Counted from the first letter of the stretch, positions 1 through 12,985 are shown. The stretch is 12,985 bases of DNA from a virus (IMGVR_UViG_2537561857_000027); one strand, 5' to 3'. The notes: generated by a model not told the origin, from the letters alone. Numbers and translations: made by a program.

Positions 1-393
1 TTATGCCGTCACTGAATCGCGCTCAACATACCGATCCATCTCCAGCCGAACATCCAGCATCATCAGCATTCCTTCAATAACACCTTCAGCTTTTTGCAGC
101 CGCTTTCCGATAGTCCCATCAGAGCATTCATGTTTTTGCGCCAGTGACATAAACGTCATCCCCCGCACGTAGTAATCAACCAGCAACTCATGCAGATCGC
201 GATTGTTCCGGTAAAGGCGGGCTATGCACCCGCATATCACCATCGCATCATCGTCACAGCACTGTGGGCGTGATGTTATCTTTGCCGGAATAATCCCCTT
301 AAATCCTGCGGCAACGGATGACCAGGTCACATTCTCGCGATTATTTGCCGCCCACGCTCCCCTGCGTTCCAGAACCTGCTGAATATCACGCAT
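1..393 (-). CDS. Phage antitermination protein Q-like (QuuD-like), about 130 aa
   Basis: ORF-track frame 1..399 with stop at 1-3. The track's first codon is TTG; the first ATG is at 393-391, preceded by GAGG 9 nt upstream. The product [18 protein letters not shown]...CCDDDAM...[18 protein letters not shown]...[15 protein letters not shown] matches, from memory, the DLP12 QuuD / Q antiterminator family. Identification is by recall, not search. Confidence 0.6.
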
Positions 394-461
394 CAACAAT
401 CGCCTCGTAATAGCTGTGGTTACATACCCGTAATTCGGAGATGCACTGGATGAAAGTTAAA

Positions 462-2045: not shown

Positions 2046-2069
2046 AACCGGGTTTATCCCGGCTTTTTT
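2046..2069 (+). terminator. Candidate plus-strand intrinsic terminator (CCGGG-ttta-CCCGG, then c + TTTTTT)
   Basis: 5-bp GC stem followed by a T6 run on the plus strand only. Its T-run overlaps the stop codon of the convergent minus-strand restriction gene. It implies plus-strand transcription in 1414-2040. Confidence 0.4.
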
Positions 2070-3144
2070 AATGTTTGATGCATTTTTCCATGAAAGAATC
2101 TAAGAATTGATCGGTTATTCCTTGAGGCTTTCGGCGCTCACAAAGAGAATACAATTCTTCTACGGCAGAGTAAGGAAAAAATTTTGTGTCTAGCTCACGA
2201 AATTGTGGTCTATTTGCAAACTCAATTACTTTTTCTCTATATTCATCTGGAGCTACGATTGTCCATCGTATATCTTGCAGACGGGGAGCATAATCACAGA
2301 AGTTCTTCATACGTGCTAAACCCCTTATTATTCCGGTACTATGCTCGATCTCCATCACGGCAGGCATCAATTTACCATTTCTAAACCAGATGCAATCTAT
2401 CAATCTTGCGCCAGCAATGGCTTCGCTGTAGGAACTTAGGACTTTTTCATTAGACAGACTGTCAATGACACCATCCATTTGAGCGATTGCTTTACCATTG
2501 TATTTTAATCCTCGGTCATTAGCTGCAACCCATGTTCTGTATCCCAGATGATGACCGATTTTTACTAATGCTATCTGGATTTGTGCATGTCTTCTTGATT
2601 CTTCAATAGACATGCCTTCAATTGGACGGATTGTTTCTGAATCAACACTTTGGTATACAACTTCTGTGTTCATCTCTGATATTACAATATTAGTTTTGTA
2701 TTCAGAAAGCTTGCCGTTTTCATGTGGTAAATTCGGTAAGTATATAAGATGCTTGTGGCCTTTTTTAATCGTCTGTTTCGTATTAATAACCTCTAAGCGG
2801 TCGAGTTTACACCAATAAAATTGAGGTGTATGAGCAAGCAAACTTTCAATAACTGAACGAGAGTTATAGCTTGCACCGAATACTCTATCTAAATTGATAG
2901 GCGCATCCTCTTGAATTGCGTTAGCCAAACGCCATAGCATTTGGCTAGATATGCTATCAACTTTGGCATCTCTGAGCGTTTCACCTTTGGTTGGATTGAA
3001 ACGTTTAAAGCGTATTGGGCCTTCTGGTAACTTAATCGAGTCGATAACAATCTTCCCGGCATTACTTTCATTCACATAATCAAACTGCCTGTTTTTGGGT
3101 AGATTTGCTATCGCATTCACAAGATTCATTGCTGTTAAATTCAT
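2068..3144 (-). CDS. Putative Type II restriction endonuclease partner of the adjacent methyltransferase (358 aa); nuclease family not recognisable
   Basis: Long ORF directly downstream of, and overlapping by 65 nt, the C5-methyltransferase gene on the same strand. ATG at 3144 has GGGA 6 nt upstream. The C-terminal region has a possible PD-(D/E)xK-like arrangement (...ARLIDCIWF...PAVMEIEHS...), which is a weak call. The restriction function is inferred from operon context. Confidence 0.5.
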   Translation of the reverse strand: MNLTAMNLVNAIANLPKNRQFDYVNESNAGKIVIDSIKLPEGPIRFKRFNPTKGETLRDAKVDSISSQMLWRLANAIQEDAPINLDRVFGASYNSRSVIESLLAHTPQFYWCKLDRLEVINTKQTIKKGHKHLIYLPNLPHENGKLSEYKTNIVISEMNTEVVYQSVDSETIRPIEGMSIEESRRHAQIQIALVKIGHHLGYRTWVAANDRGLKYNGKAIAQMDGVIDSLSNEKVLSSYSEAIAGARLIDCIWFRNGKLMPAVMEIEHSTGIIRGLARMKNFCDYAPRLQDIRWTIVAPDEYREKVIEFANRPQFRELDTKFFPYSAVEELYSLCERRKPQGITDQFLDSFMEKCIKH

Positions 3145-4219
3145 CTTTTATCCCTAAATGCTCTAATATGGATTTTGCTATGCCTAAAGCCGCAAGGTAA
3201 GGAACACCATTGCCAACAGTTTTAAACATATTTGAAAGAGTCATGTAAGATGGCAATTCGAATTCTTTCGGTAAAGACTGAATGGCAAGTGCTTCTGCAA
3301 CTGTTATTCTACGTGGCTTATATGGATGCAAATGTACTTCATTATTACCGTAAGCAGCTGTTGGAGAATATCTCCAGCGATGAAGACGCTTGTAAGATTT
3401 TTTGCTATCGTCCCCTTCAGCTACAGCTTTAAAGCGAACTAACCCAGCCCTAGCAGTAAACACATGTTTTGCGTTCACATGTTCAGAAACTTTGTTTTTC
3501 CTAAACCAGTAGTCAACAGTTAACTCTTCAGGAAGTGACTCAGGCATTGCCAGTGTTGAGTTCTCAACAAATTCATTCGTAGTTGGCCAATTATGTTCAA
3601 AAGCACTACTATCTGGGTATAATCTTCCACTCCAGTTAAAGATCTTGGTTAGACTTTTATTTTGGAAACCCAACAGAATAATGCGTTCACGGTCTTGCGG
3701 GACTCCGTATTCAATCGAATTTATTAACCTTTCATGAAGGATGTAACCAACGTCCATTAACTGTTTTTTGAGATGCTCAAAAAACTCACGGTGTTTGAGC
3801 GTGCGATAAAGACCTTTGACGTTCTCGAACAAAAAGAAGTCAGGCTTCATCTCAACAATTATATTGATGTAACTTTGAGACAGCTTACCGTTCTCTCCAT
3901 CGCGACCTTTGTTCTTACCTGCAACGGAGAAATCAGGGCACGGTGGGCCACCGATGAAGCCAATTAGTCTTTTTTCTTTCTTGAGAGCTTTAATATTATC
4001 TTTCAACTTATTGTGATCAACTTCCTCGATGCTCTCTTCTGCATATCCAAAACGTGGGATAGGTTTGTTCATCACCGCTCGTGAGTGCTTGTAAGCATCC
4101 ATAAATGGTGGGTGAAATTCATTCACAAAAACCACCTCGTAGCCTGAGTTTTCGAAGCCAAGATCTAGAAAACCTGAGCCGGAAAAGAAAGAGAAGATGG
4201 CGGGTTTAAGTGTGGACAT
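3080..4219 (-). CDS. DNA (cytosine-5)-methyltransferase, Type II R-M modification subunit (379 aa)
   Basis: Canonical m5C-MTase motifs in the correct order: I FSGSGF (FxGxG), IV GGPPCPDFS (catalytic Pro-Cys), VI ENVKGL, VIII QDRERIILLGF, IX RRITVAEALAIQSLP, X GNGVPY. A variable region of about 130 aa lies between VIII and IX. Start ATG at 4219. Confidence 0.9.
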   Translation of the reverse strand: MSTLKPAIFSFFSGSGFLDLGFENSGYEVVFVNEFHPPFMDAYKHSRAVMNKPIPRFGYAEESIEEVDHNKLKDNIKALKKEKRLIGFIGGPPCPDFSVAGKNKGRDGENGKLSQSYINIIVEMKPDFFLFENVKGLYRTLKHREFFEHLKKQLMDVGYILHERLINSIEYGVPQDRERIILLGFQNKSLTKIFNWSGRLYPDSSAFEHNWPTTNEFVENSTLAMPESLPEELTVDYWFRKNKVSEHVNAKHVFTARAGLVRFKAVAEGDDSKKSYKRLHRWRYSPTAAYGNNEVHLHPYKPRRITVAEALAIQSLPKEFELPSYMTLSNMFKTVGNGVPYLAALGIAKSILEHLGIKDEFNSNESCECDSKSTQKQAV

Positions 4220-5367: not shown

Positions 5368-5683
5368 CGCCTCAGTCGCCTCAGTTGCCTCAGTTGCCTC
5401 AAACGTCTTAACGTATTGATTTGATTAATAATCACAAAAAAATTGAGGCGACATCATGTCGATTTGAGGCAACAATAGGGGGTATTTGAGGCAACATCAC
5501 GTTGGTTCCGTTCAGACAAACAAAACCTGTCAGCCGTGTTGCCTCAAAATGGGCAGTTGTTGCCTCAAAATGGGTAATTGTTGCCTCAAAATGAGCAATT
5601 GTTGCCTCAGTAAAAACAGAAATAAAACATATAAATCAATCACATATATATATTTATTACTGTTTGAGGCAACTGAGGCAACA
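5368..5683. repeat. Iteron-type replication origin: at least 13 copies of the 9-mer GTTGCCTCA / TGAGGCAAC in both orientations, plus an AT-rich stretch (5611-5662)
   Basis: Four tandem 9-mers at 5368-5403; three inverted copies at 5444-5496; four copies at exact 21-bp spacing (5539, 5560, 5581, 5602); two inverted copies at 5666-5683. The array lies immediately downstream of the replication protein gene. Confidence 0.8.
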
Positions 5684-5707
5684 TTTTTTCATCTTATATA
5701 CGCGTAG

Positions 5708-7846
5708 TTAATCGCTTCCCTCCTCATCGTGATTAGCGAACAACATCCCGTAGGCCCATAATTGCGCTCCATTAAGGTTCTTAAGGCGTGGGGTCTTGAT
5801 TTTCCATCCTCTCCCGCTCTCTGGTCGTTTCAGCATTCCAGCTTCGTGGAGTATTTTTGCAACGGTATCCTTGTTGAAGCCTTCCGCTACTTTCGATTTA
5901 AACGGCTCCGATAATACGTAAAACAACAATGGTTCATCGTAACGGCTTCCCGAATCCCTGTAGCCGTACAGCTCAGAAATCGGCAGGCTGGCTGGGTCAT
6001 AATCAACGGGCGCAAAACGGCTCATGCCGTAGGCAGCAAGAAACGCCTCTGCCTGCTCAATGATCTGTTTGTGTTCCTTGTTGCCCGTGCCAAATTCTTT
6101 TACCCAGGCATTAAATACATACTGAATTGCATCGCGGCATTCCTGCACGGACCAGCCAGTTACATGACCGGAAAGCACAAGCGCGGCCTCCAGTATGGAG
6201 AAACGTTCACCCACGCGGTGGACCTGCTCACCGTAATTGTCTGGAATGATATTTCGCCAGCGTGCACGGCTCTCTCTAACCGCGTCCTTAGCTTCCTGCT
6301 GGTTCTCCGCAAGCCATTTAATCCACTCACGCCCCGCTGCGCCGTGGTTTTCTTGCCATGCCGCCTTCAATGCGTCAGCGTGATCCTTTCCGTTGCTGTA
6401 TTCGTGTAACTGCGTGGCTTTTTGAATCGGGATATTGAGCAGGCGCACAAGTTGCCCGACCTTAACTTTTATCCCCGACGTTTTGAGGTATGTTTCGATA
6501 TCCACCTCTCCGGTGCTGATAGCAACGGTCCGCCAGTTTTTCAGCTCTCTGTTGCCGCCGTCCTTTGCCCCCTGTAATTTTCCGAATCCATTGAACAAAG
6601 TGTATGAGGATACGTACACGTCACGGGGGCTTCCTGCCTGCCCTATCTCGTCCAGTGGAAGGAGTCCGTGATTGTGTGCTTCTGCTTCGTTAGCTATCCC
6701 CAGCGCCGTTCCGTACCAGGTTAATCGCAGCGCCTCAGGATCGCCCCACAAGCTCGACGCGATGCTCTGCGTTGTGGTCTTGCCTGCTGTGGATTGCTCG
6801 AAAAAATGCACGCCAAAACCATCAGCGCCTGTCAGCCCGACTAATGGCGCGGATAATGACGTCGCTATACCCAGCATCATGAACGGATTGCCACCAGCCA
6901 GCCGCGCCACGCTGTCGCGCCAGCTTTCCGCCGTTCCTGCCACGGAATAACCGTTAATCGCGGCACTTTTTCCGGTAAACAAAACGGGCTTGTCAGATTC
7001 GCCGATAACCGTACCGTCCGGCATGATGTACGCGCCAAAATGCCAGCCAGCCTTCGGGCTTAAGTGCCATTCCTCATGCTGTCCGCCTAACTGCATCCAG
7101 TCAGCCAGGGGGATCCTGTGTTTTCCGTTTGTCGTGACTTTAAGCCCGTTGGCTTTCAGTAATCGCCAGCCGTCAGTGTCGCCTATTCCGCAGCAAGGCA
7201 CAGCCATAGTGACAAGCCGATTTGTTGTCGAATCTGTCCAGCGCATCACGCGGTAATGCTCGTTACCAATGACACCTGAACCGAGTAATTCAACGGAAGA
7301 ACACAGCCATTCGAACGGACGGATAATTTCGCCAGATTGCTTATCAACCTTTGGCGTCACCCAGTAAACGCCATCAGGACGGCATTCAACGCGGGGTTTT
7401 AATTCGTCATCATAATTTCCGGTGAAATTTGTCTTTGCCGGAAGATTGATCACCAGGCAGTTGCCGCGTTCCGCATCATCCTTCAGTCCAGCCATGCGCG
7501 GTGTCCAGTCCTCCGGCTGCTGGTCAACAAAGCCGCTGTAGCAGCGTGCCTCCTTTACACCCGCCACCGCAAGCAGTGTTGCTATCTGTAAAAGTGCTGT
7601 CTCTGATATTTCACCAGCACGATAAACGCGCACGTAATTGCGCCCTTTATCGATGATTTTCGTGTCTTCCAGGCTCGCCAGTTGTTTCGGTCCAAGAATA
7701 ACGGGCGGTGTATCATCTGCTGCAATATGCTTTCCGGCCCATTCGCTCCACTCTTTCGCATGTGCCCAGGCATCACTACCCGCAAAGATAATGACTTCGG
7801 TCATTTTGTCTTTCGGCTGTTTTTTTAAATTCGGTGCGCTTTTCAT
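5708..7846 (-). CDS. Satellite replication initiator, primase/helicase-like (pri-rep), 712 aa
   Basis: Large ORF adjacent to the iteron array. N-terminal region (MTEVIIFAGSDAWAHAKEW...) resembles Toprim/primase-type domains; the central region has a P-loop-like GKT segment (EQSTAGKTTTQS). The domain call is from pattern memory only. Start ATG overlaps the stop of the upstream gene (ATGA). Confidence 0.75.
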   Translation of the reverse strand: MKSAPNLKKQPKDKMTEVIIFAGSDAWAHAKEWSEWAGKHIAADDTPPVILGPKQLASLEDTKIIDKGRNYVRVYRAGEISETALLQIATLLAVAGVKEARCYSGFVDQQPEDWTPRMAGLKDDAERGNCLVINLPAKTNFTGNYDDELKPRVECRPDGVYWVTPKVDKQSGEIIRPFEWLCSSVELLGSGVIGNEHYRVMRWTDSTTNRLVTMAVPCCGIGDTDGWRLLKANGLKVTTNGKHRIPLADWMQLGGQHEEWHLSPKAGWHFGAYIMPDGTVIGESDKPVLFTGKSAAINGYSVAGTAESWRDSVARLAGGNPFMMLGIATSLSAPLVGLTGADGFGVHFFEQSTAGKTTTQSIASSLWGDPEALRLTWYGTALGIANEAEAHNHGLLPLDEIGQAGSPRDVYVSSYTLFNGFGKLQGAKDGGNRELKNWRTVAISTGEVDIETYLKTSGIKVKVGQLVRLLNIPIQKATQLHEYSNGKDHADALKAAWQENHGAAGREWIKWLAENQQEAKDAVRESRARWRNIIPDNYGEQVHRVGERFSILEAALVLSGHVTGWSVQECRDAIQYVFNAWVKEFGTGNKEHKQIIEQAEAFLAAYGMSRFAPVDYDPASLPISELYGYRDSGSRYDEPLLFYVLSEPFKSKVAEGFNKDTVAKILHEAGMLKRPESGRGWKIKTPRLKNLNGAQLWAYGMLFANHDEEGSD

Positions 7847-8142
7847 TTCTTGCCCCTGAATGCGTTAATCATGTTTTTCATCTTTCGGATGTTCGCCTCT
7901 GCTTTTGCGTTGCTGGCTGGCTTACCGCGCGGCACGGACTGCACCAGAGAAAAATCACGCGCGAACTGATACAGTGGCATTACGCAGTCATAGTCATAGC
8001 CTTCACGGCGGTAGGCGATACGGCGTTCTCTCACGCTGATAATTGTCACGATGCCGCCGTACTTATCGCGGTAAATATCCCCGCGCATAAATTCAGGTTG
8101 AGCTTTGCCACTGGCAGTTAAGCCAGAATTTTTTGATGTCAT
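7843..8142 (-). CDS. Hypothetical protein, 99 aa, translationally coupled to pri-rep
   Basis: ATG at 8142 with GGAGA 8 nt upstream; stop overlaps the pri-rep start. Confidence 0.6.
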   Translation of the reverse strand: MTSKNSGLTASGKAQPEFMRGDIYRDKYGGIVTIISVRERRIAYRREGYDYDCVMPLYQFARDFSLVQSVPRGKPASNAKAEANIRKMKNMINAFRGKK

Positions 8143-8198
8143 TGAGTTAATCTCCTGAAGGAGTTGTCTTAATCTTTATTTCCCGTTTATTTTTGCCG

Positions 8199-8390
8199 TT
8201 ATTGTTCGCCGCGTTTTTCTTCCTCCGTCATTAACCACACCGCCACATTGCTGGAAAGCTGTTTGATAAGTCCCGCAATAACAGAAAGGTCATGGTCGTC
8301 TATTTCTTCGTGGTTGCGTTCAATCATGCGGCTGATTACTTCGACCTGTTGCGCTTTCAGTGAGGCTTCTGCCAGTGTCATTTCCTGCAT
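8199..8390 (-). CDS. Hypothetical protein, 63 aa
   Basis: ATG overlaps the stop of the upstream 61-aa ORF (TAATG); G-rich SD-like stretch upstream. Confidence 0.5.
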   Translation of the reverse strand: MQEMTLAEASLKAQQVEVISRMIERNHEEIDDHDLSVIAGLIKQLSSNVAVWLMTEEEKRGEQ

Positions 8391-8575
8391 TACTGCACCC
8401 CCTTAATTTCATGAACGGCGTGGATAATTACGCCGGATAAACCGGCTTTAGCTGATTTGTTAATTACTGTGCTGATTGCAGCCTGGACGTTTTCGGCCTT
8501 CACGTTCTGCGTGATGCCAACGGTATAGCCGCGTGCATTAACGGCACGGGAAAAAACACGGAAGGTTTTAAGCAT
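8390..8575 (-). CDS. Hypothetical protein, 61 aa
   Basis: Strong SD: GGAGG with 6-nt spacer before the ATG at 8575. Confidence 0.55.
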   Translation of the reverse strand: MLKTFRVFSRAVNARGYTVGITQNVKAENVQAAISTVINKSAKAGLSGVIIHAVHEIKGVQ

Positions 8576-8738
8576 GAGTCACCTCCTGACGGATACGGGC
8601 GACAAAAATCAGATGTGCGTGCGGCAGCTGCGCGCGTGCTTCGCGCTCAGTGGCAGCGGTAACGGTGAATATTGCAATGCTACCTGTCAGGCACTGCATA
8701 AAGCGCCAGACAAAGTAAGGGCGTGCGGATACAGCCAT
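8568..8738 (-). CDS. Hypothetical small protein, 56 aa, with a hydrophobic core (LTGSIAIFTVTAAT); proposed real 3' part of the 504-aa track ORF
   Basis: Internal ATG at 8738 is preceded by GAGGAG with an 8-nt spacer, and codon usage improves from here to the stop. Its end overlaps the start of the next gene by 8 nt. Start assignment is by inference. Confidence 0.35.
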   Translation of the reverse strand: MAVSARPYFVWRFMQCLTGSIAIFTVTAATEREARAQLPHAHLIFVARIRQEVTHA

Positions 8739-8903
8739 GTGAAAGGCTCCTCTGACTTTGGGATTATACCCACCGCCGGAGGTGGTAAGCTCGCTGGCGG
8801 TGGACTGTACAGGGTTACCACAACTGGCGTTAGAGGAAACCAGCCCGACCGAAGTCGGCCCCATACAGCCCACCATTGTTGAGGTGTGCGTGTGCGCCGA
8901 TAC

Positions 8904-8924
8904 AAAAAAAGACGCTGGCGCGTC
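8904..8924 (-). terminator. Minus-strand intrinsic terminator (GACGC-tggc-GCGTC followed by T7 on the minus transcript)
   Basis: Plus-strand A7 at 8904-8910 precedes the hairpin at 8911-8924; an outer CGATACA/TGTATCG stem (8897-8903 with 8926-8932) encloses it. Confidence 0.5.
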
Positions 8925-9207
8925 GTGTATCGCCTCTAACTCCAGCGGGGTGGTAATCCCGATCCCCGTTTTATAAGGGATAGCCTCAGTATATGCCGCT
9001 TTTTTGCTTAAGTGGTCGGATGTGTTGCGAGAGAAGTTTGTGCGAAAAATACCTGCGTTTTCTTTGAAAGCACATAATAACATCACGTTATTTATGTTTA
9101 TGCAGTGTGTCGCAAAGCGACCTGAATCATCACGCAAATTACAACCATAAAAAATACCTGCGCTGTGATATGAGGTACTACAGCGCACCGCTTTACGGGT
9201 ACAGACA

Positions 9208-9387
9208 ATGACAAATGAAGAACTACAGGAAATCGCATTATCCATACTTGAGCGACAGCGCGAAAAAGTACGCCTGGAACGCGAGTCTTTGCTTAATCCC
9301 TCTCCTCTCACCAGACCAAAACGATTTGCGCTTGAGGCATTTCTGGACAAATACCCACGGCGATTAATCTCGCCTAAAAACCGATAG
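9208..9387 (+). CDS. Small basic/helical protein A, 59 aa (MTNEELQEIALSILERQREKVRLERESLLNPSPLTRPKRFALEAFLDKYPRRLISPKNR)
   Basis: Hand translation; below the track cut-off. Shares a C-terminal motif K(R/K)FALE(A/E)FL(D/R)KYPRRL...KNR with ORF B, and a similar 45-nt upstream region. Composition is protein-like. The coding strand is not proven (see findings). Confidence 0.4.
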   Translation: MTNEELQEIALSILERQREKVRLERESLLNPSPLTRPKRFALEAFLDKYPRRLISPKNR

Positions 9388-9483
9388 CGATCCGCTTTTG
9401 CTTCTCTGACTCCATAAAACGAATAACAACCATCAGCGCCGTGGTGTGAGGTGCTGCGTCGCTCCGCTGTACAGGAAATAAGT

Positions 9484-9762
9484 ATGGATTTACCACCAGA
9501 AGATGAGAAATTTTTACGACAACTACAACACCAACTACTCATGGATGCCATTGTCGAGCAGCAAACAGGGAGCAGCCCCATTGATTCATCGCTGAATAAA
9601 AAGGCCGCTTCCCGTTTTATTGAAAACAGGATAAGACGAGGAAAAACATGTGACGACGAGTCAAAGGCATCGCATACAAGAGATAAAAAATTTGCACTTG
9701 AAGAGTTTCTCAGGAAATACCCACGGCGGCTAAAAGCAACCAAAAATCGCCCGCCAGGCTGA
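9484..9762 (+). CDS. Small protein B, 92 aa, paralogue of protein A
   Basis: The track ORF 9451..9762 begins at GTG; the ATG at 9484 has AGGAA 6 nt upstream. C-terminal motif shared with protein A. Confidence 0.45.
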   Translation: MDLPPEDEKFLRQLQHQLLMDAIVEQQTGSSPIDSSLNKKAASRFIENRIRRGKTCDDESKASHTRDKKFALEEFLRKYPRRLKATKNRPPG

Positions 9763-9765
9763 TAG

Positions 9766-10076
9766 CATTGTCCACCAGCCTCAGATATGGCATTGTGGAT
9801 AATGCGCTTGATTTCCTTTATCTCCACTGGCGACCCTTTCGTGGTCGCCTTTGTTTTGCCTGCCATTCCTGCATCATGCGGATATTCGCGCCGTACAGGG
9901 CCACCAGCGCGATAATTTGATAAAGCCTCCTTCTGATAATGCTTAACGTGTTTCATGCGCTCAGCGGCGAAATGGCTCACGATATGGCGCATGTAATCAG
10001 CATGGTTGATGCTCACCTGTGCGAACTTATCCGCAGTATCGATGTACAGGGCGGCAGCGTTGCGGATGTCAGGCAT
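9766..10076 (-). CDS. Hypothetical protein (MPDIRNAAALYIDTADKFAQVSINHADYMRHIVSHFAAERMKHVKHYQKEAL...); start well supported, 3' end unresolved
   Basis: ATG at 10076 with GGAG about 9 nt upstream; it overlaps the stop of the upstream 51-aa gene by 8 nt (ATGCCTGA). The first 50 or so codons use E. coli-preferred codons (ATC, CTG, CGC, AAC, TTC). The frame has no stop until 8568. The lower coordinate given here is arbitrary. Confidence 0.3.
9829..9858 (+). terminator. Plus-strand intrinsic terminator (GGCGACC-ctttcgt-GGTCGCC followed by TTTGTTTTG)
   Basis: Perfect 7-bp GC-rich stem followed by a T-rich tract, about 70 bp downstream of ORF B. Confidence 0.6.
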
Positions 10077-10224
10077 GTTCACGTTCTCCCAGGCGACGGA
10101 CCAGCCAGCGTTGGGCTAATTCGGTGAGACGTTCTTTACGTTCTGGCGTTGGCATATCCATATCCAGTAGCGCACAGTTACGGCTTTCCAGATACGCGAG
10201 CAACGCCAGTTGATCAGCGGTCAT
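10069..10224 (-). CDS. Hypothetical small protein, 51 aa (MTADQLALLAYLESRNCALLDMDMPTPERKERLTELAQRWLVRRLGEREHA)
   Basis: Internal ATG at 10224 overlaps the stop of the Rha-family gene (ATGA); the track's longer 81-aa version would overlap that gene. Confidence 0.45.
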   Translation of the reverse strand: MTADQLALLAYLESRNCALLDMDMPTPERKERLTELAQRWLVRRLGEREHA

Positions 10225-10859
10225 ATGGTCACGAACTTTTTTTGATGGGATGCCGTTTTTTTGGCCCATACAGGCGGGTGCATCCCTAATACAAGGCGCG
10301 CAATGAAAGTACATTCGTTGTTATAAGCATGACCGTGTTGAGTATCTCCAGTGCGCTCAATGTATCCCTTCATGGCATCCCCCATAGAGCGCATCTCAGC
10401 TTTGGCCTCACATCTCTCTGCTATCCAGTTAGCCATGCGGTTAAACTGCGCAATGTATGCCTCTTTGAATGCAGCCGCTTTTTTTCCGGTAAATCCCATT
10501 GTTAAAAACACGAAGCCGTCTTTGGTGACTTCGTAGGCTTTCAATACGCGCCCCTTATGCTCAAATTTTACCCGCCGAAAATTGCGGGTTAAAAATTCAG
10601 CAGAACAACACAGGTTTTCAATCCGGTTAACAACCTTATCGTGATCCTTTCTGAAAAATCGGGCGATAGCCTGTGAAGTGGTTACAGGCTCACCGCCAGA
10701 AGGAAACACTTCCGGCGCGGTGAGTGCATTTTTATTTATTCCGTCAGCAATAATCTCATTGCCGGAAATTACCGGAATAATTGCGGCGAAATACTGTTGG
10801 CTCAGTTCTTCGGGCTGAACGAAGCCCTGCCCCTGTACGAGCATATTCGGACGTTTCAT
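10221..10859 (-). CDS. Phage regulatory protein, Rha family (212 aa)
   Basis: Residues about 57-140 (TTSQAIARFFRKDHDKVVNRIENL...RVLKAYEVTKDGFVFLTMGFTGKKAAAFKEAYIAQFNRM) match the Rha-domain signature as I remember it. AGGAG lies 7 nt upstream of the ATG at 10859. Confidence 0.75.
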   Translation of the reverse strand: MKRPNMLVQGQGFVQPEELSQQYFAAIIPVISGNEIIADGINKNALTAPEVFPSGGEPVTTSQAIARFFRKDHDKVVNRIENLCCSAEFLTRNFRRVKFEHKGRVLKAYEVTKDGFVFLTMGFTGKKAAAFKEAYIAQFNRMANWIAERCEAKAEMRSMGDAMKGYIERTGDTQHGHAYNNECTFIARLVLGMHPPVWAKKTASHQKKFVTI

Positions 10860-11770: not shown

Positions 11771-12985
11771 TTATGCACATACACCAAACTTGCCGTGCAC
11801 CACGTTACCGCCCTGTTCCAGTGAGTCCATATAGTCGGCGTACCACTGGAGCATCTCCCGCCGTCCGTCCAGATATTGCGCGTGATTGTATGTGCCACGG
11901 ATCGAGTTTTTATCGACGTGCGCCAGCTGCGTTTCTATCCATGCGGAGTTATACCCCTGCTCGTGCAAAATCGTACTCATGGTGTGCCGGAACCCATGAC
12001 CAGTAACACGCCCTGCATAACCAATACGACGAATAAGCACGTTCATCGCCATTTCACTCATCGGTTTACTGTGCTGTATTCGACCAGGGAAAATAAACGG
12101 ATACTGCCCCGTCATGTGTTTCAGTTGTTCCAGAATAGCAATCGCCTGTTCTGAAAGCGGCACGCAATGAGGACGGCGCATTTTCATTCGTTCTTTCGGC
12201 ACTTCCCACAGACGATTATCAAAATCAATCTCCTGCCACTCTGCCTGCCGTAATTCACCAGGGCGGAGTCCTGTAAGAATCAACAATCGCATACCCAGCT
12301 TGACGATCTGGCTTCCGGTGTACGTATTAAAAACGCGGAAAAACTCCGGTAGCTCATCAACTTTCAGATACGCGTAATGCTCTTTCTTGTGTGGTGCAAA
12401 TGCGCTTGCCAGATCAGGAGCGGGGTTATATTCAGCGCGTCCGGTAATTATTGCGTACCGGAACACTTCGCCACATCGCTGGCGAACCTTACGCAATTTT
12501 TCAGTTGCGCCACGGTCATTAAGACGGGATAGAACCGCGAGCAATTCCATCGGCTTAATCTCTGCGATGGGCCTACCTCCAATGTACGGAAAAACGTCTT
12601 TTTCAAACGTCTCTATCATTTCCTCTGCATATGAGGGAGACCATCGGTCCAGGCGTTTTTCATACCACTCACGGGCGATCGCCTCAAAGGTGTTACCGCA
12701 TTTGTTCGCCTGTTCTCGCTTTTGGGCCTTTCTGACCTCACTCGGATTAACTCCACCAGCGATAAGCCTTTTGGCCTCATCCCTTGCCGTCCTGGCATCA
12801 GAAAGGGACACCTCAGGATAAACACCCAGCGACAACATTTTGGGCTTGCCTGCAAACCTGTATCGCAATCGCCAGCCCTTCGAACCGTTCGGCTCAATGA
12901 GTAACGAAAGCCCGTTGCCGTCATTGAGTGTATAGGCTTTCTCTTTTGGCTTCGCGCGGCGGATAGCAAGGTCTGAAAGCAACAT
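11771..12985 (-). CDS. int: P4-type tyrosine integrase (404 aa), complete
   Basis: N-terminus MLLSDLAIRRAKPKEKAYTLNDGNGLSLLIEPNGSKGWRLRYRFAGKPKMLSLGVYPEVSLSDAR is the conserved P4-integrase N-terminal domain; C-terminus has the catalytic region (HGFRHT ... RGTYNHAQY). ATG is at 12985-12983, the window edge, so the attachment site lies beyond the window. Confidence 0.95.
   Translation of the reverse strand: MLLSDLAIRRAKPKEKAYTLNDGNGLSLLIEPNGSKGWRLRYRFAGKPKMLSLGVYPEVSLSDARTARDEAKRLIAGGVNPSEVRKAQKREQANKCGNTFEAIAREWYEKRLDRWSPSYAEEMIETFEKDVFPYIGGRPIAEIKPMELLAVLSRLNDRGATEKLRKVRQRCGEVFRYAIITGRAEYNPAPDLASAFAPHKKEHYAYLKVDELPEFFRVFNTYTGSQIVKLGMRLLILTGLRPGELRQAEWQEIDFDNRLWEVPKERMKMRRPHCVPLSEQAIAILEQLKHMTGQYPFIFPGRIQHSKPMSEMAMNVLIRRIGYAGRVTGHGFRHTMSTILHEQGYNSAWIETQLAHVDKNSIRGTYNHAQYLDGRREMLQWYADYMDSLEQGGNVVHGKFGVCA

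Follow-up and report, generated by a model that had tools for sequence, protein, structure and literature searches.

A stretch of viral DNA of 12,985 nucleotides (nt) (IMGVR_UViG_2537561857_000027; the whole stretch is called the window hereafter) carries four small open reading frames (ORFs) of 56, 61, 63 and 99 amino acids (aa) directly upstream of a replication gene, and the question raised by this locus is what these ORFs encode and what decides whether they and the replication gene are expressed. A preliminary description, made from the sequence alone, had regarded them as an overlapping operon feeding the replication gene of a satellite, had recognised none of the four, and had proposed that they might act in interference with a helper phage or in its derepression. 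Our analysis suggests, with a probability of roughly 70%, that the four ORFs form the translated leading part of an early/replication operon belonging to an Escherichia coli satellite of the phage-inducible chromosomal island (PICI) type, and that this operon lies behind a gate formed by an antisense RNA of the C4 type.

ORFs of the four lengths were found where they had been described, together with the Shine-Dalgarno (SD)-like element that had been claimed for each of them. The genes of the chain and their start signals are as follows.

8571-8738 (stop codon 8568-8570), minus strand: 56-aa ORF, Icd-like, first translated gene
8747-8753, minus strand: SD of the 56-aa ORF, AGAGGAG, 8 nt before the ATG at 8738
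8390-8575, minus strand: 61-aa ORF, phrog_3672
8580-8587, minus strand: SD of the 61-aa ORF, AGGAGGTG
8199-8390, minus strand: 63-aa ORF, phrog_1478
8398-8404, minus strand: SD of the 63-aa ORF, AAGGGGG
7843-8142, minus strand: 99-aa ORF, DUF4222
8151-8157, minus strand: SD of the 99-aa ORF, CAGGAGA
5708-7846, minus strand: 712-aa DUF927 primase/helicase (pri-rep; Pfam, PHROG), last gene of the chain
7853-7858, minus strand: SD of the 712-aa replicase, CAGGGG

All five starts, including that of the replicase, have an SD-like element 6-8 nt ahead of them, and the SD of the 61-aa gene is encoded by the 3' end of the 56-aa ORF. Chaining by overlapping stop and start codons stood, with the strings quoted earlier, at three junctions, namely 56/61 (ATGCTTAA, 8-nt overlap), 61/63 (TAATG, 1-nt overlap) and 99/712 (ATGA, 4-nt overlap), and failed between the 63- and 99-aa ORFs. 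On the coding strand, neither an intrinsic terminator nor a σ70 consensus promoter was found between the terminator of the upstream isrK-like RNA (see below) and the primase gene. The location of all genes on one strand, the lack of an internal terminator or promoter consensus, the coupled junctions and the presence of int, AlpA, the primase and ori iterons support the earlier view of an operon that feeds pri-rep in a satellite. All four small ORFs are real genes under purifying selection: the ratio of non-synonymous to synonymous substitution rates (dN/dS) among homologous coding sequences of related loci was 0.21-0.38 for the 56-aa frame (62 distinct sequences), 0.10-0.42 for the 61-aa frame, 0.18-0.28 for the 63-aa frame where synonymous sites were not saturated, and 0.23-0.41 for the 99-aa frame.

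The statement that none of the four is recognisable turned out to be wrong. The profile and structure-prediction searches that had been proposed matched the 56-aa protein to NCBIfam NF033153, the 99-aa protein to DUF4222, and the 61- and 63-aa proteins to two PHROGs without known function; fold matches were uninformative on function. The match of the 56-aa protein to NF033153 ('host cell division inhibitor Icd-like') scored 53.4 bits (cutoff 25), and P4 Kil matches the same model at 73.9 bits. The protein shares 43-48% identity with Icd proteins of P1 type and others, and contains the motif WRF...TExEAR...F-AR, in which the invariant residues of the family are W11-R12-F13 and T30-E31-x-E33-A34-R35. 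P1 Icd inhibits cell division, and over-expressed P4 Kil is lethal; by homology, the 56-aa protein is probably a host division inhibitor as well.

The 99-aa protein matches Pfam PF13973 (DUF4222) at 84.1 bits (cutoff 27). It is basic (isoelectric point (pI) 10.2), has the length of the family (about 99 aa) and its conserved core (residues 20-68), keeps the RGD motif R20-G21-D22, and has 68% identity, across the whole of its 99 residues, with the DUF4222 protein encoded on an O157:H7 island that adjoins roxA. That island is likely OI-51/CP-933C and its DUF4222 protein likely RgdR, and the 68% identity is an identity to RgdR on this assumption. RgdR (ECs1581) of enterohaemorrhagic E. coli (EHEC) O157:H7 OI-51/CP-933C has 99 aa and a pI of 10, activates LEE1 of the enterocyte effacement locus (LEE) as well as type III secretion, acts as a repressor of motility, and shows non-specific DNA binding (PMC3378721, PMC10877973); C1493 of CFT073 is an orthologue (PMC3378721). 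Like RgdR, the protein of the window is encoded directly upstream of the island replicase, with which its gene overlaps; unlike RgdR, which has been characterised as an activator of LEE/type III secretion and a repressor of motility in EHEC, the window orthologue is known from its sequence. In the AlphaFold2 (AF2) model, residues 20-70 (predicted local distance difference test score (pLDDT) about 90) form a five-stranded small β-barrel of the SH3/KOW type followed by a basic C-terminal helix, and the matches of this core to KOW, SH3 and TnsB barrels are weak (E at least 0.01). We infer that the RgdR-like protein is a small basic β-barrel DNA-binding protein. The replicase behind it matches Pfam DUF927 (E 4e-42) and the DNA primase family phrog_1139 (E 4e-141). 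For the first and the last of the four ORFs, the proposed role in helper interference or derepression is unsupported, since they are an antisense-RNA target of the Icd/Kil type and a protein of the RgdR family.

What precedes the 56-aa ORF indicates how the chain might be controlled. Two RNA genes and a leader with sites complementary to one of the RNAs were identified there.

8905-8981, minus strand: isrK / P4 seqA-like RNA (Rfam RF01394, 48.3 bits, E 5e-8)
8988-8993, minus strand: possible -10 box upstream of the isrK-like RNA, TATACT, found by eye
8950-8956, minus strand: a1 site in the isrK-like RNA, UUACCAC, exact complement of a' (7/7)
8933-8940, minus strand: b1 site in the isrK-like RNA, GUUAGAGG, exact complement of b' (8/8)
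8793-8880, minus strand: C4 / P4 CI-type antisense RNA (Rfam RF01695, 77.7 bits, gathering score 45, E 3e-14)
8829-8836, minus strand: b', the loop of C4 hairpin 2, CCUCUAAC
8815-8821, minus strand: a', the single-stranded C4 segment after the b' loop, GUGGUAA
8739-8792, minus strand: leader between C4 and the 56-aa ORF, with target sites a2 and b2
8782-8788, minus strand: a2 site in the leader, UUACCAC, exact complement of a' (7/7)
8747-8756, minus strand: b2 site in the leader, GUCAGAGGAG, which contains the SD AGAGGAG of the 56-aa ORF

An intrinsic terminator, with its stem at 8911-8924 and a U run, closes the isrK-like RNA. The C4 RNA scores 106 bits with the purpose-built covariance model R1, the fold z-score of its region is -4.1, and 55 nt separate its 3' end from the start codon of the 56-aa ORF. 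The locus has the sequence features of a C4/CI switch, namely a structured RNA of about 80-90 nt, pairs of complementary sites both upstream and downstream, and overlap of the downstream site with the ribosome-binding site. In P1 and P4, such an RNA is processed out of the leader transcript of its own operon and represses the genes behind it through blocked translation and premature termination (PMC10111431, PMC4825925). The helix between b' and b2 in the window has seven contiguous pairs, or ten with one A·C mismatch, the mismatched base being the C at the GUCAGAGG site. The translation of the isrK/C4 stretch (8751-8991, minus strand) also matches Pfam PF10554 (Phage_ASH; 32.4 against a gathering score of 26), which places the 'Ash family protein' annotations of related islands on the RNA genes or the long frame described below, and explains the RefSeq calls of an 'Ash family protein' and of a 502-aa 'Icd-like protein'.

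The pairing was then followed through related loci, of which 97 (80 of them distinct; referred to by L numbers where needed) were collected through the Icd-like protein. A C4 covariance model of the related loci gave 49 matches in 40 sources, which yielded 33 distinct sequences covering C4 and leader, in which 22 different b' loops and 11 a' segments are represented. Over these 33 sequences, the longest contiguous helix between b' and the leader had a mean length of 10.3 nt (minimum 7) in cognate combinations versus 5.9 nt in non-cognate ones, and the cognate b2 site, which reaches into the GGAG of the ribosome-binding site of Icd, had a constant position. The pairings a'-a2, a'-a1 and b'-b1 showed the same cognate preference as b'-b2. 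The covariation suggests that pairing of C4 with its targets follows the logic of P1 c4/icd, with many immunity specificities. In this set, the window and L003 look like a recombinant of a C4 module of P1 type and an Icd of the 'MAVSARPYF' type, in which a first C4 seems to have been fused to a second Icd, leaving a mismatched b2. Tandem C4-Icd modules with different loop specificities occur in L018, L020, L023, L026, L033, L037, L039, L045 and L046, for example at 2818-2904 and 3296-3382 in L018.

The coupling of the chain is conserved across the same loci. The chain in the 80 distinct loci begins with an Icd-like ORF of 55-77 aa (one call is a fused ORF of 130 aa), which overlaps the next ORF by 8, 11, 4 or 1 nt in 78 of the 80 (8, 11 or 4 nt in 77). 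Zero to four small ORFs of many unrelated families fill the slot between Icd and DUF4222. As to whether the frames are conserved in homologous islands, on which the earlier proposal had been made to depend, the Icd-like and DUF4222 frames are kept in nearly all of them, the 61-aa frame in 18 and the 63-aa frame in 21 of the 80. Wherever both genes are present, which is the case in 61 loci, the junction between DUF4222 and the replicase is ATGA, and this invariant coupling makes it most likely that the RgdR-like protein is an accessory factor or regulator of the replication module. One possibility is that it loads the replicase at the ori or regulates it there, in which case its effect on LEE would be a side-activity. 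The replicases themselves (465-725 aa, annotated as DUF927, DNA primase family, RepA helicase or AAA ATPase) have about 150 N-terminal residues in common. In P1-type phage loci, Icd is followed through ATGA by the Ant antirepressor. L003 has a 40-aa, internally deleted remnant of DUF4222 (7220-7342 in gene-strand coordinates) in which the ATGA overlap with the replicase start is kept; truncates of RgdR are known from O157 islands (PMC3378721). An acidic family of 73-80 aa, which usually precedes DUF4222, was considered as a distant relative of the 63-aa protein and rejected (hhalign probability 0.3%).

Both RNA genes lie inside a long frame that runs into the 56-aa ORF.

8568-10082, minus strand: 504-aa stop-free frame, in phase with the 56-aa ORF, spanning the isrK and C4 RNA genes

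The frame begins within the preceding ORF, which it overlaps by 14 nt. Not one stop codon occurs in its 448 codons ahead of the icd ATG, versus 13-29 in the other five frames, and none of 2000 shuffles equalled this. Two loci, L100 (frame of 550 aa) and L102 (569 aa, beginning 64 nt after AlpA), keep the frame open as well; they are about 96% identical over this stretch and have different upstream neighbours. The frame is interrupted in L003 and L101. The possibility that the 504-aa ORF, which RefSeq annotates as the 502-aa 'Icd-like protein', is an artefact was dropped in view of P4 eta, the open frames in L100 and L102, and the shuffle test. It looks like an analogue of P4 eta. Constraint on its protein is weak: synonymous/non-synonymous counts were 6/17 and 7/19 in 9763-10082, and in 9208-9762 the counts do not separate the long frame from two ORFs of the plus strand that have their third codon positions in common with it. 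We infer that selection keeps the Eta-like frame open and translatable, as for P4 eta.

The two plus-strand ORFs, at 9208-9387 (59 aa) and 9451-9762 (103 aa), are antisense to the long frame and are intact in L100 and L102. They have the motif K(R/K)FALE(A/E)FL(D/R)KYPRRL in common and gave no Pfam match, and similarity to YlcI/YnfO, which occupy the equivalent place in L005 and L006, was sought and not found. Many related islands lack some 370 nt of this stretch, a difference that points to a duplication.

P4 is the closest known system. On the minus strand of P4 (NC_001609) the order is vis (orf88), seqA, CI, eta/kil, ε, orf151, orf106 (DUF5375) and the α primase. P4 seqA matches the isrK model at 60.8 bits and P4 CI the C4 model at 74.9 bits; eta (214 aa) spans seqA and CI, and its last 65 residues are the Kil that matches the Icd-like model; ε overlaps Kil by 8 nt, and orf151 overlaps ε by 8 nt. 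The window has the same order and strand logic as this left operon, with an AlpA/Vis-type gene upstream, both RNAs upstream, a long frame that ends as an Icd-like protein, an 8-nt overlap, small genes and a primase. It differs in that the 61- and 63-aa genes and DUF4222/RgdR replace ε, orf151 and orf106, in that the primase is of the DUF927 type and not α, in that sid, delta and psu are absent, and in that the Eta-like frame is much longer (504 aa versus 214 aa). In P4, CI-seqA interactions bring about early termination of the transcripts that start at the constitutive promoter, read-through allows Kil to be translated, and full-length Eta is made from the late promoter, its translation preventing termination (PMC10111431). 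The element is P4-like in its immunity/replication operon and is not a P4-like satellite with a sid-delta-psu-α core; sid, delta, psu and an α-type primase are not listed in the RefSeq annotation of the identical island described below.

The immI operon of P1/P7 (a1 b1 - c4 - a2 b2/icd - ant) resembles the locus in that a' and b' of C4 are complementary to an upstream and a downstream pair of sites, in that b2 lies over the icd ribosome-binding site, and in that icd overlaps the next gene (through ATGA in P1-type loci); the P1-type Icd is 43% identical to the window protein in an alignment. It is unlike the window in its cargo, which is the Ant antirepressor instead of small genes and a replicase, and in the overlap after icd, which is 4 nt in P1 and 8 nt in the window. 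The isrK-orf45-anrP locus of Salmonella prophage Gifsy-1 also has an IsrK-type RNA with its own terminator upstream and a CI-like processed RNA, STnc1160 (PMC4825925), and in its read-through mRNA the first small ORF must be translated for downstream expression, by translational coupling (PMC4825925). In Gifsy-1, IsrK activates orf45 translation in trans, and the cargo, unlike that of the window, is an antirepressor leading to AntQ. The isrK-like RNA of the island may act as such an activator or may just titrate C4. Gram-negative PICIs (EcCICFT073, EcCIMP1 and the capsid-forming cf-PICIs, in the four-zone organisation of Mageeney et al.) have int, AlpA, a Bro/Rha zone with immunity RNAs, a replication zone with primase, single-stranded DNA-binding protein (SSB) and ori iterons, and unidirectional transcription, as does the island in the window, which differs from them in having a type II restriction-modification system and Q in place of packaging genes. 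Mageeney et al. (2023) described immunity RNAs in this 'Bro zone' of Gram-negative PICIs, several of which are matched by the C4 and isrK models (PMC10111431).

On these grounds, the gate would work as follows. The a' and b' segments of C4 would pair with a2 and b2 in the leader, b2 covering the SD of the Icd-like ORF, and with C4 in excess the Icd-like ORF would remain untranslated. The untranslated transcript would be subject to premature termination by Rho, as in P1 and P4, and on such termination the 61-aa, 63-aa and RgdR-like genes and the primase would stay silent and the island would not replicate. Citron and Schuster in 1990 and Biere et al. in 1992 reportedly found in P1 that a block of icd translation exposes the transcript to Rho-dependent termination, and the same is said of a block of kil translation in P4 by Dehò, Ghisotti and colleagues (Forti et al. 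in 1999). In the window, the excess of C over G as a hint to a Rho site is weak. The gate might be opened in three ways: an upstream RNA bearing a1 and b1 could out-titrate C4, transcription could increase, or ribosomes could arrive from upstream through the Eta-like frame after AlpA-driven induction, AlpA being the PICI activator (PMC6092414). Once the gate was open, Icd would be translated, the 8-nt and 1-nt overlaps would carry ribosomes on to the 61- and 63-aa genes, initiation would occur afresh at the RgdR-like gene, and the primase would be reached through ATGA.

Several results weigh against this proposal. The b'-b2 pairing of the window is, with that of L003, the weakest among the 33 sequences, and with a weak b2 at an apparently recombinant junction repression may be leaky. 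About half of the related Icd-led operons, those of a class with Icd about 50% identical, have no detectable C4 even with the search filters off, which implies that the RNA gate is not obligatory for this type of operon. The isrK-like RNA scores below the Rfam gathering score (48.3 versus 50), and the promoter scan gave no convincing σ70 promoter upstream of it. Pairwise BLASTP of the Icd-like protein against P4 Kil gave nothing, and their kinship is found at the profile level only. The 63- and 99-aa ORFs are uncoupled, being separated by an untranslated gap of 56 nt (8143-8198, minus strand), and folding at the start sites does not exceed that of shuffled sequences, so no structure enforcing coupling was seen. 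Lastly, the Rha gene upstream is frameshifted, and the element may therefore be partly decayed. As to the gap, no stable RNA structure was found in it, and in related loci the spacing before DUF4222 is mostly +5/+6 nt, about 57 nt being found only in L003 and L038. The C4-less Icd class (L005, L010 and L048-L097) has other hairpins upstream, such as that at 3770-3965 in L064 (fold z-score -2.9).

The two middle genes are those to which the idea of a role directed at the helper could still apply. The 61-aa protein (pI 10.6) belongs to phrog_3672, of unknown function (E 1e-24), and its AF2 model is a ββαβ fold (pLDDT 92) whose best matches are the archaeal ribosomal LX / eL20 N-domain (template modelling (TM) score about 0.8, E 4.5e-3) and uncharacterised phage proteins. 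Its family is small, with just 32 cluster representatives among 1.84 billion proteins and no match among 50,697 phage records. The 63-aa protein (pI 4.6) belongs to phrog_1478, of unknown function (E 1e-18), and essentially all of its homologues come from E. coli; among phages, a single weak match was obtained, in Fels-1. The 61-aa family, each time directly after Icd, and the 63-aa family occur together in 17 distinct loci, the latter alone in four and the former alone in one. Proteins of 238-378 aa that seemed to be fusions with the 61-aa protein proved to be over-called ORFs running through the Ash/C4 region, not domain fusions. Profile searches of the PDB with the Icd-like, 61-aa and DUF4222 proteins gave nothing. 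The 61- and 63-aa proteins appear to be a satellite-specific, exchangeable accessory pair.

It could be supposed that the coupled small genes, or at least this pair, are helper-directed effectors, either derepressors resembling ε or interference proteins. The P4 gene that overlaps kil by 8 nt is ε, a helper-derepression protein, and the 61-aa gene sits in the same slot, so that helper derepression may be a fair positional analogy for the pair; the slot between Icd and DUF4222 varies as strongly as an arms race would lead one to expect; and both families are essentially absent from bona fide phage genomes, being confined to E. coli islands. However, the 61-aa protein, when tried as an ε homologue, was rejected (hhalign probability 0.2%), none of the four small ORFs matched a PADLOC model of defence or interference or any functionally annotated family that would point to such a role, the fold matches are uninformative, and neither the first ORF (Icd/Kil) nor the last (RgdR) fits the idea. 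As an account of the operon we consider it unlikely. A combined reading, in which RgdR is natively a factor of the PICI replication module and the 61/63 pair is a helper-interaction module in the ε slot, is possible and is offered tentatively. If it were true, then with more than 20 C4 loop specificities the stretch from Icd to RgdR would set the immunity type and the helper specificity of Gram-negative PICIs.

Whether the operon belongs to a living element was considered from the rest of the island. The region under study is 100% identical to E. coli JNEC-KY203, in which the island adjoins tRNA-Gly, between actS and a glycoside hydrolase gene. Its gene order is int, AlpA (a match to PF05930 in Pfam), the frameshifted Rha gene, and then the RNAs with the four small ORFs, followed by the DUF927 primase/helicase, a 181-aa ORF of unknown function, SSB, a type II restriction-modification pair and the Q antiterminator, and every gene of the window is on the minus strand. 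The further features are as follows.

11771-12985, minus strand: int, integrase
10069-10859, minus strand: Rha-family gene, apparently frameshifted (212-aa ORF 10221-10859 and overlapping 81-aa ORF 10069-10314)
5537-5682, no strand assigned: putative ori, iterons and 9-mers just downstream of pri-rep
2068-4219, minus strand: type II restriction-modification cargo (Dcm-type cytosine methyltransferase 3080-4219, type II restriction enzyme 2068-3144)
1-399, minus strand: Q-family antiterminator at the far end of the island (Pfam Phage_antitermQ, E 2e-49)

The putative ori has iterons of 21 nt in 3.5 copies (5537-5609, TGTTGCCTCAAAATGGGCAAT) and two TGAGGCAAC 9-mers (5665-5682) around an AT-rich stretch, a layout that matches the PICI origins of PMC6092414. 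Gram-negative PICIs were taken to be elements of about 10-18 kb with int, alpA, pri-rep, an iteron ori and one-way transcription and without lysis or tail genes, a layout described in PMC6092414 and PMC11773190, and the island has the int, alpA, pri-rep, iteron ori and unidirectional transcription of this class. No capsid or packaging genes were found in the window; related E. coli islands include capsid-forming PICIs.

The island might instead be a decaying remnant, whose ORFs persist by recent descent or through domestication of single genes such as that of RgdR. The Rha gene is frameshifted in the window, where the 81-aa ORF matches the C-terminal part of the same PHROG as the 212-aa ORF, and is flagged as frameshifted by RefSeq in JNEC-KY203 too; the integrase of JNEC-KY203 is also frameshifted and IS421 is inserted there. 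The missing capsid and packaging genes, the mismatched b2 site and the documented effects of RgdR on host regulation (PMC3378721) would agree with such a state. On the other hand, the integrase, AlpA, four small ORFs, primase, SSB and ori iterons of the window are intact, the small ORFs are under purifying selection, and EcCIMP1, a PICI which also has no packaging genes, has been mobilised experimentally (PMC11773190), which makes decay an improbable explanation.

It is very unlikely that the basic 61-aa and acidic 63-aa genes form a toxin-antitoxin or addiction pair, as two small genes with a 1-nt overlap, opposite charge and co-occurrence in 17 of the 22 distinct loci with either family might suggest, since searches of Pfam, NCBIfam and PADLOC gave no toxin-antitoxin or defence match, no promoter consensus was found for the pair itself, each family also occurs without the other, and the predicted fold of the 61-aa protein resembles small RNA- or protein-binding domains and not known toxins. 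Hardly more credible is the view of the small ORFs as translated spacers that keep ribosomes on the mRNA against Rho with irrelevant protein products, which could appeal to the prevention of termination by kil-region translation as such in P4 (PMC10111431) and to the open, weakly constrained Eta-like frame, because dN/dS of 0.1-0.4 in all four ORFs indicates selection on the proteins, the 61-aa protein and the DUF4222 core are predicted to fold with high confidence, and RgdR activity has been demonstrated (PMC3378721).

With the C4-gated replication operon as the preferred reading, the annotation of a common E. coli island module is corrected, the RefSeq 'Icd-like' and 'Ash' calls overlying two RNA genes and a Kil-type ORF. 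The replication genes of a class of PICIs would be placed behind an antisense-RNA gate of the P1/P4 type with many specificities, and RgdR, an EHEC virulence regulator, is placed in a satellite replication module, which gives a concrete hypothesis on its native role. The arrangement is not conceptually new, the P4 paradigm being old and the RNAs having been noted in PICIs in 2023; the covariation of 22 loops with the Icd ribosome-binding site, the invariant RgdR-replicase ATGA and the long Eta-like frame go slightly beyond the literature consulted.

Some minor observations concern other parts of the island. Weak Rfam matches to plant and insect miRNAs at 5580-5701 are chance matches in the AT-rich ori region. 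The Rfam int-alpA RNA (RF02996) gave no match in the window at E <= 1 and lies between int and alpA in L007, L008 and L053. The restriction enzyme at 2068-3144 matches PADLOC REase_II (E 7e-124), and its gene overlaps that of the methyltransferase by 65 nt. A link between the isrK/C4 switch and the Q gene of the island is conceivable, since the Gifsy-1 isrK locus controls the Q-like AntQ.

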